Below, piece by piece: positions 1 through 4,885 of a stretch of DNA of 40,341 nt. A program made the position numbers and the translations under genes. Location of the stretch: positions 1 through 40,341 of the forward strand of contig JAHEID010000003.1 of the NCBI GenBank assembly GCA_024639555.1, given 5' to 3'. Source of the stretch: Deltaproteobacteria bacterium. GTDB lineage: Bacteria; Desulfobacterota; Desulfobulbia; Desulfobulbales; BM004. A model generated the notes under the pieces. It saw only the letters and a program-made list of their open reading frames with translations, was not told the origin of the DNA and made no database searches. The first letter of the stretch is position 1; each line of letters opens with the position of its first letter.

Positions 1-2
1 AA

Positions 3-152
3 GTGAGGGTAGCAGAAAATTACCCAAATGGAACCTGGGTAAATACAGATGATTTGGGTACTATTGATAATGGTTTACACTTTGATGATGTTGGATATCG
101 ATTACTTGGTGAAAGATTTGCACTCGCAGCAATTAGTTTAATTGACCCTTAA
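3..152 (+). CDS. C-terminal fragment (5'-truncated by window) of a probable SGNH/SASA-type carbohydrate acetylesterase
   Basis: Own translation VRVAENYPNGTWVNTDDLGTIDNGLHFDDVGYRLLGERFALAAISLIDP*; the D-x-x-x-HF...GY..LG.RFA ending is typical of SGNH block V in sialate O-acetylesterase-like proteins. Confidence 0.6.
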   Translation: MRVAENYPNGTWVNTDDLGTIDNGLHFDDVGYRLLGERFALAAISLIDP

Positions 153-697
153 AATGAAATAGTTCAGATAAACAACAAAGCCAAGTAACAGACTATTATT
201 GAATTTGTCATTACTGCTGATATGTCTGACAGTGTCAAGTAGAAAAAACCTAGCCATTGCCCGTGTTTTATCGGGAGTTTTTCATTTCATATGCAGGGCA
301 CCGCCAACTGTAAAGATCTGCTATATCTTTACAGTCGTGAATCATTCCTGAATTATCAAGGTATCCACAATACATCTTAACTTTTTTAGTCAACATATCT
401 CCCTAATATATTGACCCGACTCATAAATCACGATATCTATATCCATCCAGTACTGATATTTTGGATATATCTTGACTTTTGATTGCCAGTGGACATCTTG
501 AATCATTTTTTGCAAGATGAAAGTTAAGATGTGGCAAGACATCTATAATTTTTAAAACCTTTCAAATAACCTCACTGTGGCACTTCCCCCCTTGACTTAC
601 CTTTTTTAGGTTTTAATATTTATTCTTATATAAAAGTAACTCATACAACCTCTACAAAATCTTTTTAAATAAAGAGGTGTACATAGACTAAAAAATT

Positions 698-1009
698 ATG
701 GCAAACAACAGGGTGAGAACTATGTCTGATGTCACTGATGACAACAGCAAGAATCAGCAGGAGTCCGGAGAAGAATCGGAATTGGAAGCATCGAACGATA
801 CTGGGGAAAAAAAAGTACAGACAAAGTCCTATAACCACCTCAGAGGAGCAAGTTATATGGTTCTGCTCATTGCGGCTGTTTTTGTGATATACAAAATAAT
901 GACAAAAAGCTGTTGCGGAGCGTCTTGGTCAACGGTTGTCTTCACAGCTGTCCTCGGTTTTGGACTGCTGGCATATTCTTTCTATCACAAATCCCATGAT
1001 CATGATTGA
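698..1009 (+). CDS. Hypothetical small membrane protein (acidic N-terminus, two TM helices, CC motif, His-rich tail)
   Basis: 103-aa ORF with two hydrophobic segments; TTGACT -35-like box at 592 upstream; terminator directly downstream. Confidence 0.65.
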   Translation: MANNRVRTMSDVTDDNSKNQQESGEESELEASNDTGEKKVQTKSYNHLRGASYMVLLIAAVFVIYKIMTKSCCGASWSTVVFTAVLGFGLLAYSFYHKSHDHD

Positions 1010-1043
1010 TTCTTACAATACCAAAATATCCATTGGATACATT

Positions 1044-1070
1044 AATCCTGCCTTCGGGCGGGGTTTTTTA
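1044..1070 (+). terminator. Rho-independent terminator (near-identical copy at 4574)
   Basis: AATCCTGCC-TTCG-GGCGGGGTT followed by T run. Confidence 0.85.
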
Positions 1071-1427
1071 TTTGATATTTAAAATGTACAGTGGAAATAT
1101 TCAGTCAGATTTTGTATGACAAAACCCAAGATGTTGGCAAGACATCTATAGTTCATGAAAAATCCCTTTCCTAACACATTGTGACACTTGATTTATCCAT
1201 CCACAAAATGTTATTAATAAAACTTAATCTTACCATAAATATAAACCTCTAAGAGAGAAGACTCTAGTGAGAGAGGTTTTTCTTAAAATGCCAGTTTAAA
1301 GCCTTCATCGGGAAGTGTTGTTTTCTTTGAAGGCCATTTGTGTTTTTGACAAGGACCGAAAGAAGCGATTACTTATCACCAATGTATAAGTACAATAATT
1401 AGCAACAATCCTTTCTAATCCATCATC

Positions 1428-2906
1428 ATGGAGACAAGTATGCATAGTAAATATATTCGATCAATCTGTGCAGCCGTAGCCTCGGCGTTTCTGTATATAA
1501 ATGCTATGCCTGCTTTCGCCGACTACACCAGAGTTACTGTTACTGGTACTGTCAGTGGCGTAGAAAGTGATTTGGGTGGTGGAACCTTTTTCGATCTCGG
1601 AGTGGACGATACAATTACCGGGCAGTTTGTTTACGGCACCAGCGAGGCGGATGCGACTTCAGTAGATTCAGAGGGCACTTTTAGCAAAGATTACTTTTTT
1701 ACCGGAAACAACTACGGCGCATCCATTACGAGCGCGAGCGGATCGGCAGGTTTTCAGAACGATCGGCTATCGCTTTTTGTCGATAATAATTTTCCGGTCG
1801 AAGCCGAAGATGCCGCTATTGTTGATCTTATTAACGAGGAATTCGGACTGAACATTCAAGTGGGGAACCAGCTGGATGGCTGGGGGATTGACGCAGAGTC
1901 ACCAGACGCAATCTGGGATAATCAGAATGACTGCCTGGTTAATGGTGCAGATTTGGAAATTATATTGCTTGATGTTGATGCAACGATGTATGACGGTCTG
2001 CCAGCAGCCCCCAATCTTCCGGAGCCGCCTGCTCAGAATGTGATCGATGCCCCTTTGTTCTTTATCGAGGAGGCCAGTGGCTCAACAGGCTGCGAAAATA
2101 TAGTCTACTCCGCTTACGGCAGGATTACCGATCTCCAGTACGAGCTGATTGAAAATGTAGCGACTCCCTATAATGATACCCAGGTTGCTATCATCGATGA
2201 TTTCACCATCGTGAAAAACGGCAATACCATCTGGTCGGATTCCTTTGGTGATGGCATTGCACCGATTACCAATGACGACTATCTCGTGAATGGTGCCGTG
2301 GGGCCGGAGTCGGGTGGAAAGCTCGCAATGGATACCTCTGTGGGTTCGGAGATCACTACGGGTACGAGCGGGCTCGAGATCGTTCGCCACCGGGTGCGCA
2401 AGAAGACCTCCACTGGCAGTGATATTACCAAAGGCCTCAGGACCGACGATACCTTTTCGGTGACGGCGACCTTTGACCTGACAGTGCCCGAGTTGCCTGG
2501 TGAGCATTACGGGATCATGCTGGCTGATAGTGTCAGCGGCACACCGGGGAATGACCACCTGGGCCTGGGTGTGCGGCACACATTCAAAGGCGATTTGAAG
2601 ATTCAATTCCGTCGACATGACAATCAGACAGGTACAGTCACCGTAATTGACGAGGTGGCACTGGATACGACCTCAGGTCATGAGCAGATTACCCTGAAAC
2701 TCAACCGGGCGAGTACGGGTACCAATGCCATTACCGCCTCCTATACCTACGGAGCCGGGTCGCCTGTTCCCTTTGCATCTACCGCAACCATCTTCAACGG
2801 GGAGAATTATACCCGGGCACAGTTTATGGCAGTGACGCCTTTGGAAGTGCCGGAAAGCGCCGCGCCCAAGGCCATGCCCTGGTTGTTCTTGCTGCTCGAG
2901 GAATAA
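1428..2906 (+). CDS. Secreted/surface acidic protein with C-terminal hydrophobic tail (AMPWLFLLLEE)
   Basis: 492-aa ORF, signal peptide ending AMPAFA-D, Asp/Thr/Gly-rich beta-type composition; start may be 1440. Confidence 0.8.
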   Translation: METSMHSKYIRSICAAVASAFLYINAMPAFADYTRVTVTGTVSGVESDLGGGTFFDLGVDDTITGQFVYGTSEADATSVDSEGTFSKDYFFTGNNYGASITSASGSAGFQNDRLSLFVDNNFPVEAEDAAIVDLINEEFGLNIQVGNQLDGWGIDAESPDAIWDNQNDCLVNGADLEIILLDVDATMYDGLPAAPNLPEPPAQNVIDAPLFFIEEASGSTGCENIVYSAYGRITDLQYELIENVATPYNDTQVAIIDDFTIVKNGNTIWSDSFGDGIAPITNDDYLVNGAVGPESGGKLAMDTSVGSEITTGTSGLEIVRHRVRKKTSTGSDITKGLRTDDTFSVTATFDLTVPELPGEHYGIMLADSVSGTPGNDHLGLGVRHTFKGDLKIQFRRHDNQTGTVTVIDEVALDTTSGHEQITLKLNRASTGTNAITASYTYGAGSPVPFASTATIFNGENYTRAQFMAVTPLEVPESAAPKAMPWLFLLLEE

Positions 2907-3079
2907 TGGTTTTTATCAATGAGACAGATGTCATCCGTAAGATCCTGGAGCATCTTGGGCTATGGGAAGACAAGACTCCCCCAGAACGCGCTCCACCCGA
3001 TTCAATTCCCTAAAAGAATTACGAACCGTATGACGACGGCTGGCCGCAGTAAGAGGAACCGTCAGTTACTATCCATTGA
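2906..3079 (+). pseudogene. IS91-family transposase C-terminal remnant
   Basis: Own translation MVFINETDVIRKILEHLGLWEDKTPPERAPPDSIP*KNYEPYDDGWPQ*EEPSVTIH*; FI....VI.KIL.HLGLW...RAPP resembles IS91/ISCR transposase C-termini; two in-frame stops. Confidence 0.7.
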
Positions 3080-3535
3080 GCCTGTCTTTTAAGATTATAT
3101 TTTCAGGCTGGTGGATTATTGCGCTGTTTGTTTTAACCAATAATCTAGATTTATTCCTCGCTTATCTATTTACGCATAACTGCTATATCGTTACACTCTT
3201 GAATAATTCTCAATGTGTCAAGATGTACAGTGGATATGTTGACTCTCATCAAAGAGTAAGGGGACCAACCAATCACGGCTGATCCCCTTTTTTCGTTGAA
3301 TTTCAATGACGACACCCCGGACGGCTTTTTGTTTTTTGCCTCCCTCCATTGGTTTAAAATCGTTAATCTTTCCTATAGAATCAAGGTGTACTTTGGACAT
3401 CTTGAATGGCAAGCAATCTGAACTTTAGGCTCAATCTCCCCAAGCCACCACATTGTGGTACTTTCTTCTTGACTATCTGATTGTTTCTATTTAAGAATAA
3501 CAATTACATACATAACCTCTATGAGGAGTTTCGCC

Positions 3536-3568
3536 ATGAAAAGGAGTAAGTTTAAAAAGCTTATATAA
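3536..3568 (+). CDS. Putative 10-aa leader/micro-peptide MKRSKFKKLI
   Basis: GAGGAG RBS 7 nt upstream, TTGACT-17-TAAGAA promoter-like pair from 3469, terminator hairpin directly after the stop. Confidence 0.35.
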   Translation: MKRSKFKKLI

Positions 3569-3606
3569 GGCCTCGTGGGTATAGTCCACCCCAACGGGGC
3601 TTTTGT
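3568..3606 (+). terminator. Putative intrinsic terminator/attenuator
   Basis: GCCTCGTGGG pairs with CCCAACGGGGC, followed by TTTTGTGTTTT. Confidence 0.6.
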
Positions 3607-3617
3607 GTTTTATTATC

Positions 3618-3694
3618 TCAAGAAAAAGCCAAACCTGCCGTGAGACAGGGACGGAAAATTGCGGGTCTTATAGGAGATAGCCGGGTTGCCTTGA
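3618..3694 (+). ncRNA. Cyclic di-GMP-I (GEMM-I) riboswitch
   Basis: P1 TCAAG/CTTGA; G-C-C-AAA-CC-TGCC-GTGA-GACAG-GGACGGAAA P2 with GNRA loop; P3 GGGTCT...AGATAGCCGGGTTGCC; located upstream of ORF 3773. Confidence 0.88.
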
Positions 3695-3772
3695 AAAGGG
3701 TTTCGGCACGCCCCAATTATTGGCGCGTGCCGAAAAAAAATTACTTATCACCCCAATCTTGAGGAAAAGAAA

Positions 3773-4267
3773 ATGAACACAAGCGGAAGACATCGAATCT
3801 ACATCACCCTGCTGCTGGGAAGCTTGCTGATTGCTCCGTCGCAAGTATTCAGCGAGCCACCCCGTCCTGAAGCTGAAGCTCAAGCAGAACTTAAACAAGT
3901 TCTTAAAGCAATTTACGATGATGCTATGTCAGCAAATGTCGAAGGACTTACAACTAGTCATCTTATTTCATCTAAGTTTACTAAATTTGGACCTCGAAAT
4001 TTCAGTAGACAAACAGCCGATGAAACGAATGAATCAGAGGCATCTTTCTTTACTTCAATCAAAGATCTAAAAGTGGAACTAAAAGATGTCAAGATAGATG
4101 TCTTTGGAGAAGTCGCAGTTACAACATTCTATCCTCATTTTTCATTCGTGAAGGATGACCAACTTAAAGAAGGCTCCAGTCGACAGACTCTTGTCTTTCT
4201 AAAAACAGATCAGGGCTGGAAAATCATTCATGAGCATGGAACTCCTAAGAAGTGTTTCACTGAATGA
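3773..4267 (+). CDS. Secreted NTF2-like/SnoaL-like domain protein
   Basis: Signal peptide; C-terminal R-x-T-x-VF-x-K...WKIIHEH motif of the SnoaL_3/DUF4440 fold; GAGG RBS. Confidence 0.8.
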   Translation: MNTSGRHRIYITLLLGSLLIAPSQVFSEPPRPEAEAQAELKQVLKAIYDDAMSANVEGLTTSHLISSKFTKFGPRNFSRQTADETNESEASFFTSIKDLKVELKDVKIDVFGEVAVTTFYPHFSFVKDDQLKEGSSRQTLVFLKTDQGWKIIHEHGTPKKCFTE

Positions 4268-4359
4268 CAGTCAAAACTCTATTTAAAAATAGCAACGAAA
4301 GTGAGTGACCATTTCACGGCCTAATGCTTGAATTAGAATACAAAAGTGATGATTAGAAA

Positions 4360-4548
4360 GTGGGCACTATTACTTCATATTATCAAGTTAACAGTGTTGA
4401 TTGCGATCCCCATGGGCCAAATCCAGAAAATTTTTATAAAGTTTTTCCAAACGACCCAAGCATAACAGGAGTGCAAAACTCTTCGTATCCGACACCGTCT
4501 TTTTCACTTGGTGAGATCCCCATAGCCTGTTGCGCTCCTGATCAATAG
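4360..4548 (+). CDS. Short hypothetical ORF or gene fragment
   Basis: 62 aa, GTG start, followed by terminator at 4574; no recognisable motif. Confidence 0.3.
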   Translation: MGTITSYYQVNSVDCDPHGPNPENFYKVFPNDPSITGVQNSSYPTPSFSLGEIPIACCAPDQ

Positions 4549-4573
4549 AGAGCAGTTCACATACCACAAGAAG

Positions 4574-4600
4574 AATCCTGCCTCCGGGCGGGGTTTTTTA
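4574..4600 (+). terminator. Rho-independent terminator (copy of 1044)
   Basis: AATCCTGCC-TCCG-GGCGGGGTT plus T run; one mismatch to 1044-1070. Confidence 0.85.
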
Positions 4601-4810
4601 TGTGATATTAAGATGTACGTTGGATATGTTAAGTCAGAGCTTGAATTACTAAACTCAACATTATGGCAAGGATATTTAACTTTCAGCGACAGAGAAAAGT
4701 TAACATATCCAGTGGATATATTGAATCTGATTCTGACGGCTTTTAAATCACATAGACGGCGTTAAACGGACATAGCCGGAGGTAAAGTCAGGTAAAGTAC
4801 TCTCAAAATT

Positions 4811-4857
4811 GGCCTTTCACGCCGGCGACACGAGTTCAAATCTCGTTGGGGGCGCCA
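4811..4857 (+). mobile_element. 3' half of tRNA-Glu(TTC): probable attR-type island boundary
   Basis: Anticodon loop CTTTCAC, T arm ACGAG-TTCAAAT-CTCGT, acceptor strand TGGGGGC-G-CCA; no D arm or 5' acceptor strand upstream; core gene purL follows. Confidence 0.85.
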
Positions 4858-4885
4858 CATTATAGGAGTTAAGGCCGCAAAGTGT

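Follow-up and report, generated by a model that had tools for sequence, protein, structure and literature searches.

Analysis of a contig from a bacterium of the order Desulfobulbales (JAHEID010000003.1) revealed a composite intergenic repeat that separates the genes of a genomic island. The stretch analyzed, hereafter the window, comprises 40,341 bases, with base 1 at the contig start. The repeat includes a palindrome, termed A, whose 9-nucleotide (nt) arms flank a 7-nt spacer. We favor, with a probability of roughly 45%, the interpretation that the composite is a mosaic intergenic repeat with a dual role, as a junction for recombination and as a landing pad, and that A is an asymmetric protein-binding site on duplex DNA within it. 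A is probably a site bound by a recombinase or by an accessory protein. Gene modules that lack a recombinase of their own would be moved or swapped via the composite, and A, perhaps together with a second site termed B, would bind a recombinase or accessory factor that marks or aligns the junctions.

The palindromes are far from a chance occurrence. The consensus TCAAGATRT-N7-AYATCTTGA, with at most three mismatches, has eight matches in the window (starting at 356, 390, 451, 1126, 3218, 3381, 4608, and 4700); 0.05 matches are expected in the shuffled window, and none of 100 shuffles attains eight. Additional A sites at 477-501, 1021-1045, and 1079-1103 were recognized by reading the sequence and with a weight matrix. 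Sites of type B, which have the spacer TGGCAAG, are located at 523-547, 1126-1150, and 4655-4679. A preliminary description of this DNA had reported about 13 copies of the palindrome, cargo genes of visibly different base composition, and a tRNA fragment at the end of the array. These observations are borne out: the consensus, weight-matrix, and by-eye sites together account for the copies, the G+C content of the island cargo spans 33% to 56%, and the tRNA fragment is recovered as a sub-threshold Rfam match (4799-4854) and by alignment to the tRNA-Glu(ttc) genes of relatives. The sites had also been said to occur only among island cargo. This is correct within the window, where all of them lie in 356-4724, but not for the genome as a whole, in which the consensus has 31 matches on 16 contigs.

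To place the repeat in context, we compared the source genome (G000; 2.42 Mb, 85% complete) with 12 other genomes of the genus (G001 to G012); C numbers below denote contigs, of G000 unless prefixed, and L numbers denote retrieved loci. When copies from the same genome are aligned, the modules follow the order XL, XR, A, a short hairpin, B, and a promoter-like box with a leader. The composite thereby occupies the gap from the end of one gene module to the start of the next. XL is about 90 nt long and carries an intrinsic terminator. XR consists of two arms flanking the invariant word CTGCTAT, followed by GTGAATCATTCC. Two main types of XR arm exist, and each of the two hybrid combinations, with the joint at CTGCTAT, is seen. 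Of all the modules, A is the best conserved. The spacer of A is mostly ACAGTGG across the aligned copies, and the start of B is fixed at 47 nt after A. On its left, A is bordered by XR or by a terminator hairpin (T), and on its right by the hairpin and B, by a terminator, or by unique DNA. The arrangements counted were XR-A-hairpin-B (20 copies), XR-A-other (15), T-A-hairpin-B (9), and XR-A-T (4). Rfam gave no match on the repeat at gathering thresholds or at E values up to 1, and its only hits were a riboswitch and the tRNA fragment.

The weight matrix for A has 88 matches in the source genome, versus none in the reversed genome; these counts cover both strands, and palindromic sites may thus be counted twice. 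Profile searches of the same genome yielded 14 XL modules, 33 XR modules, and 46 A-B units. The pattern of A and B separated by 36 nt is present in each of the other 12 genomes of the genus (reversed-pattern controls, 0-1) and, among genomes of other genera, in 19 of 28, at one to five places each (controls, up to 2). The repeat is modular, genus-wide, and genus-specific within the Desulfobulbaceae. Many contigs of G007 end within the initial 53 nt of XL, where identity is 92-94%, and this part of XL must therefore be a high-copy repeat in that genome. Single units adjoin apparently core genes both in the source genome, where a unit on C28 lies beside what we take, by eye from the first residues, to be a citrate synthase gene, and in the complete genome G011. 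The preliminary description had named scatter upstream of core genes as an observation that would speak against its cassette proposal, and this is seen in part, in that units are spread genome-wide and adjoin some apparent core genes. In the literature searched, no account of such repeats in cable bacteria or their relatives was found.

The view of the composite as a landing pad is supported by an element that carries two recombinase genes. The source genome contains five tyrosine-recombinase genes, two of which resemble XerC and XerD. On C200, two overlapping recombinase genes encode proteins of 369 and 303 amino acids (aa), both of which match Pfam Phage_integrase (E values 4e-35 and 1e-35). 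They belong to an element of ~2.2 kb (G000:C200 2129-4331) that has 14-nt inverted ends and the word CTGCTAT on either side. Between the ends, the coding strand has just two open reading frames (ORFs) of at least 70 aa. XL lies on one side of the element and the right arm of XR on the other, with A 33 nt further to the right. Copies of the element in G006 and L064 (436-2637) share the ends, and others are found in L060 and L083-L162. When copies are compared, high identity starts and stops exactly at CTGCTAT, and only family-level likeness is seen beyond it. On the strength of such sequence comparisons, the demonstrated exchange point is the CTGCTAT of XR, 33 nt to the left of A. An empty counterpart of the C200 insertion was not found in relatives, because the left flank has no DNA match there.

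Relatives of this element number at least 433 in a metagenome scan and are abundant in sediment metagenomes. Many of 80 metagenome loci among them have the same inverted ends next to CTGCTAT. Strict end patterns are present at both ends in 13 of 83 loci, at one end in 15, and at neither in 55; the complete elements comprise ten of 2.1-2.4 kb and one of 3.8 kb. The right flank consists of the XR right arm and A in six of six cases from the close lineage. Among the 14 pattern-recognized right flanks of at least 60 nt, five have the XR right arm and A, all of them from the close lineage, and nine do not. A different tyrosine recombinase, of 278 aa (L039 12116-12952, on G011:C9), adjoins XR and an inverted A of the same variant as that at window positions 356-380. 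Near its homologue in G005 (C5 7138-7974), only a doubtful A-like site is present.

Comparisons with G005 place additional similarity borders within the composite, at window position 360, at window position 3242, and at C199:1517. Window positions 1-360 are 91% identical to G005:C126, and positions 3030-3242 are 88% identical to G005:C186; in both cases nothing is common after A. In these alignments, near-identity already drops at the left end of XL or at CTGCTAT, and the remainder may be family likeness. An early reading that similarity breaks at the right edge of A was weakened by the copies of the two-recombinase element, which show a sharp border at CTGCTAT. C199 and G005:C160 have a small cassette in common; its two copies are 85% alike over the stretch reaching from the promoter-like box to XL, with a drop between XL and XR.

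Units of the repeat form arrays in which they alternate with unrelated genes or operons. On C199, C221, C156, C150, and C86, and in the window, the units of each array lie on one strand, the only exception being the inverted A at window positions 356-380. The cargo of these arrays includes a GGDEF cyclase, a RimK operon, multihaem cytochromes, a phosphonate-binding protein, a sugar transferase, a permease, VKOR, and a SnoaL-like protein. By crude ORF calls (at least 80 aa, within 1 kb), 45 of 56 units follow the 3' end of an upstream ORF on the same strand; of the 55 units with a downstream ORF, 39 face the start of that ORF and 16 face its end. For one cargo protein, of 492 aa, the metagenome search returned no relative. 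Contigs of four public sequencing runs were also compared with the window. The repeat reaches depths in the thousands in these runs, and the joints recovered are short-sided and come from other copies; none is a trustworthy joint of a circle or deletion, nor could one have been seen in this way.

The arrays are also linked to tRNA genes, in that eight of 33 tRNA or transfer-messenger RNA genes have a unit within 1.5 kb. In G004, G011, and G012, a tRNA-Lys gene and a tRNA-Glu(ttc) gene directly adjoin purL, and these genomes represent the empty site. The source genome has an intact tRNA-Lys/tRNA-Glu pair on C156, followed by an array that extends to the contig end. The array of the window ends with the 3' 47 nt of tRNA-Glu, followed by purL, and positions 4811-4873 align to the 3' half of the tRNA-Glu(ttc) gene of relatives. 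Thus, the window contains the right end of an island integrated at tRNA-Glu, the middle of which is unassembled. The last 76 nt of the island are common to G001, G006, and G010, and G005 carries other content at this position. The tRNA flank is a hotspot common to different island types. In G005, the C-terminal end of a phage-type integrase (G005:C68 1-355; L049) abuts tRNA-Leu(taa), at the spot where an array ending in XR-A is located in the source genome.

The structural character of A and B was assessed by a covariation test on 50 distinct A-B units with 1000 shuffles. The arms of A pair in 71.1% of cells versus 71.6% in shuffles, with constant mismatches at two positions, and the arms of B pair in 67.1% versus 67.0%. 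Long-range pairing of A with B is no better than chance, as 941 and 449 of the 1000 shuffles attain the observed values. One long hairpin formed by A and B, resembling that of attC or CTX, was therefore ruled out. The hairpin in the linker between A and B alone exceeds all 1000 shuffles (67.6% versus 63.6%), although the copies are related and the test may thus overstate this result. Conservation is highest in the columns of the spacers and of A's inner right arm, and the left and right arms of A differ consistently. Because its arms do not covary, A resembles a site recognized by protein on double-stranded DNA rather than a folded strand; it looks like a sequence-conserved asymmetric dyad of the kind expected for such a site.

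Several observations weigh against a role of the composite as a recombination junction with A as its protein site. No crossover within A is documented; the sharp borders lie at CTGCTAT, at the left end of XL, or at the joint of XL and XR, and similarity that reaches the right edge of A may be mere family likeness. The spacers of neighboring A sites are unlike (ACAGTGG, ACTTTGG, ACGTTGG, and CCAGTGG), a difference that would hinder tyrosine-recombinase exchange between them. The block carrying the SnoaL-like gene (3524-4331), which is 92% identical to G006, ends at no repeat unit, and the small cassette of C199 and G005 has kept XL-XR-A on its right and has a different A-B variant on its left. 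The flanks of the two-recombinase element are generally not palindromic (5.2 versus 5.09 pairs of 10), a result that also rules out a hairpin as its general target. Apart from XerC and XerD of the host, which alone among recombinases occur in all 13 genomes with the repeat, no recombinase type is present in every carrier: the integron integrase, the two-recombinase element, and IS91-type elements are each found in three of 13. In the complete genome G011, which carries the repeat, the recombinase frames are limited to XerC-like, XerD-like, one of 431 aa, and one of 287 aa. Finally, the 39 of 55 units that point at the start of the next ORF would also fit a regulatory role.

The preliminary description had proposed a new integron- or pdif-like gene-cassette system in which the A palindromes themselves are the crossover sites, cut in the 7-bp spacer by a tyrosine recombinase that moves single-gene modules. 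Part of its outline stands, including sites at the boundaries of unrelated genes, same-direction arrays, an island integrated at a tRNA gene, recombinase elements tied to the composite, and similarity that ends inside the composite. The proposal in full, with crossover in A, is, in our judgment, quite unlikely to be correct. Although the 9-7-9 layout, the conserved asymmetric spacer, the single direction within arrays, the presence of A at every junction type, the consistent difference between its arms (as for two different recombinase subunits), and the tyrosine recombinases adjoining repeat copies would all suit a crossover site, the documented insertions have their sharp borders at CTGCTAT, the only readable crossover point, and neighboring spacers differ. 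The cargo breakpoints that the preliminary description expected within spacers are not where it placed them, since block 3524-4331 ends at neither kind of site, and no linked recombinase is found in all carriers. Alternatively, A and B might be operator or activator sites of one transcription factor that, with the promoter-like box, form a portable promoter module for accessory genes, and the genus-specific regulon so defined would be large. This is a possibility that we consider improbable. The constant distance between A and B, their position ahead of a promoter-like box and conserved leader, the predominance of units that point to the 5' end of the next ORF, and the lack of covariation in the arms, as for a protein site on duplex DNA, are consistent with it. 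However, for 16 of 55 units the next ORF is convergent and presents its 3' end, and in 19 XR-A copies neither B nor a promoter box comes next: four of these run into a terminator and 15 into other sequence, among them some directly next to a convergent tRNA or core gene. Spacers that are the best-conserved parts, a covarying hairpin between A and B, and a gene that may keep its 3' XL-XR-A while its 5' A-B is exchanged also speak against operators.

A further alternative likens the composite to the repetitive extragenic palindromes (REPs) and bacterial interspersed mosaic elements (BIMEs) of enterobacteria and pseudomonads. Under this explanation, palindromes and linkers would bind nucleoid proteins or terminate transcription and would spread by a transposase or by gene conversion, with gene shuffling and the arrival of mobile elements as by-products. 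The resemblance is considerable, as the repeat consists of short imperfect palindromes with conserved linkers that are mosaic, extragenic, lineage-specific, and present in dozens of copies per genome (the 88 matrix matches versus none), and its modules combine freely. REPs are reported to be insertion-sequence targets (PMC1525189), and in G006 one A-B unit is broken by an IS200-type gene; at that locus (L072 295-894, on G006:C252) the transposase gene follows an A-B unit broken off at profile position 53, in what looks like an insertion. Nonetheless, we regard a purely REP-like repeat as an unlikely explanation. The repeat lacks a REP-associated tyrosine transposase (RAYT; Y1 type) flanked by its units: the source genome has only an 81-aa Y1 fragment, Y1_Tnp occurs in seven of 13 genomes, and one of 12 fetched Y1 loci is near a unit, which the Y1 gene interrupts. 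The consensus has neither of the end tags, GTAG and CGTC, of the tagged REP families (PMC3733652). The units here are 25 nt long with conserved 7-nt centers and form strict one-direction arrays between accessory genes in tRNA-linked islands. Strong one-direction arrays and clustering at tRNA genes are not known as features of REPs and BIMEs, and the repeat exceeds their behavior in this respect.

Taken as a recombination junction, the composite also has parallels among systems that assemble genes. As in integron arrays, unrelated genes are arranged in one direction, and the site is found at the 3' end of the cassette in the 45 of 56 units noted above; the composite site moreover has two 25-nt halves, A and B, that resemble simple sites and surround a small hairpin. 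The terminal core words of attC sites are RYYYAAC and GTTRRRY. These words are absent from the two ends of the consensus of the 50 units, whose A and B halves show no pairing or covariation. In addition, the integron integrase is not beside the arrays. The gene at C178:163-1173 (L047) was judged by eye to encode an integron integrase because of its extra domain, and IntI relatives occur in G004 (three copies) and G012, giving three of 13 genomes versus 13 of 13 for the repeat. No XL, XR, or A-B matches (E values up to 0.01) were found beside the integron integrases at five loci; hence the integron of this genus does not have the repeat as its attC. Small ORFs resembling toxin-antitoxin genes lie beside the integrase gene on C178.

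Sites of the Xer and pdif type likewise bound gene modules with short dyads for tyrosine recombinases, and host XerC and XerD are available in all repeat carriers. A dif or pdif site is 28 bp with a 6-bp center, and pdif sites alternate in orientation around modules. The spacer here is 7 bp, and the sites are direct rather than alternating. A loose probe with the dif consensus, allowing up to four mismatches, found no match in the 85%-complete genome. The landing element itself resembles the transposons that carry multiple tyrosine recombinases in its pair of recombinase genes, its short inverted ends, and its strong preference for a target. The classes Tn554, SEs, GInts, and RITs, with the accessory genes Tfp/Srap and TnpC, are described in PMC10214605. 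The landing element differs in being ~2.2 kb with two ORFs, in having no Tfp-, Srap-, or TnpC-like gene and no third recombinase, and in carrying the same 7-nt word on both sides. With respect to miniature inverted-repeat transposable elements, the outer arms of A and B are inverted copies of one word, and no target duplication and no clean filled-versus-empty pair was found, synteny among the genomes being too broken.

A more elaborate scheme, which we put forward as speculative and on balance unlikely, would treat XR (CTGCTAT), A (ACAGTGG), and B (TGGCAAG) as three stacked cores of arm-7-arm design, each element using its own core. Modules without a recombinase would be mobilized in trans and could in this way build integron-like arrays at tRNA genes of sediment Desulfobulbaceae without an integron integrase. 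Should the composite prove to be a recombination junction, it would account for the way these bacteria build highly variable islands of unrelated genes, including cytochromes, a diguanylate cyclase, transporters, and secreted proteins, beside tRNA genes, and it would add a route to cassette-like gene arrays other than integrons.

In the window, all mapped features are on the + strand with the exception of the inverted A. An XL module with its intrinsic-terminator hairpin (214-304; nhmmer E value 2e-26), aligned with 11 other copies, follows the upstream gene. XR (307-355; nhmmer E value 4.8e-13) comes next, with its arms around CTGCTAT at 318-324, where in other copies the two-recombinase element is inserted, and then the GTGAATCATTCC box. 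The inverted A (356-380, - strand; spacer CCACAAT on the + strand), assigned by consensus and weight matrix, is followed by a module termed M (388-477), which contains the palindromes 390-414 and 451-475 and recurs in C14, in G005:C37, and twice in G005:C5. An A-hairpin-B unit occupies 477-547 (A 477-501, linker, B 523-547), with an nhmmer match of the A-B profile at 480-545 (E value 5e-10). The terminator hairpin T (1044-1070; repeat family D2), which has a 94% identical copy at 4574-4609, stands immediately ahead of an A site. T-A-hairpin-B is a recurrent class with nine cases. The next unit occupies 1079-1150 (A 1079-1103, hairpin, B 1126-1150; nhmmer E value 4e-17).

Downstream of this unit lies a promoter-like box, P (1160-1215; repeat D11), which was delineated by eye and is conserved in C156. 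It has the word CACATTGTG followed by a pair resembling -35 and -10 elements, and is a putative promoter; similar boxes are located at ~565-625 and 3445-3500. Inspection by eye led us to reject a sigma-54 promoter, whether in B or in the promoter-like box, as the -12 GC is absent or out of register in most copies. The 3' remnant of an IS91-family (Y2_Tnp) transposase gene with the downstream end of the element (2906-3130) is homologous to G000:C205, where the Y2_Tnp ORF is a 285-aa open frame, and to G006:C335, both of which have Y2_Tnp matches. This remnant directly precedes an XR-A unit. The unit comprises an XR-like module (3176-3213; nhmmer E value 0.009), with CTGCTAT at 3180-3186, the point at which near-identity to G005:C186 falls off, and an A palindrome (3218-3242) that has the top matrix match (39.5 bits) and also fits the consensus.

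The segment that follows (3243-3380) is, by alignment, a copy of the terminator and ~85 nt found downstream of tRNA-Glu on C156 (13223-13329) and on C28. It leads to an A palindrome with spacer ACTTTGG (3381-3405), identified by consensus, alignment, and weight matrix, and then to a degenerate B. The last array segment (4574-4724) contains T (4574-4600), A (4608-4632), a B-like site (4655-4679), and A (4700-4724), as recognized by consensus, repeat families, nhmmer, and weight matrix. The island's right end (4735-4810) and the 3' 47 nt of tRNA-Glu(ttc) (4811-4857), which constitute the right attachment repeat, were delimited by comparison with relatives and by Rfam.

Some of the cargo carries leader elements that lie outside the repeat. 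A c-di-GMP-I-GGC riboswitch (3619-3694; Rfam 69.5 bits, gathering threshold 59) precedes the gene for the SnoaL-like protein (3773-4267; Pfam SnoaL_3). The block at 3407-3700, consisting of a promoter-like box, a leader with a tiny ORF, and this riboswitch, recurs at 69-78% identity ahead of other genes on C31 and C150 and in G005, G006, G007, and G011. A conserved leader hairpin, ACCTCT ... AGAGGT, is present just upstream of several cargo genes (window positions 640-700, 1240-1290, and 3510-3600, and C69 at ~6650), and may mask a ribosome-binding site.

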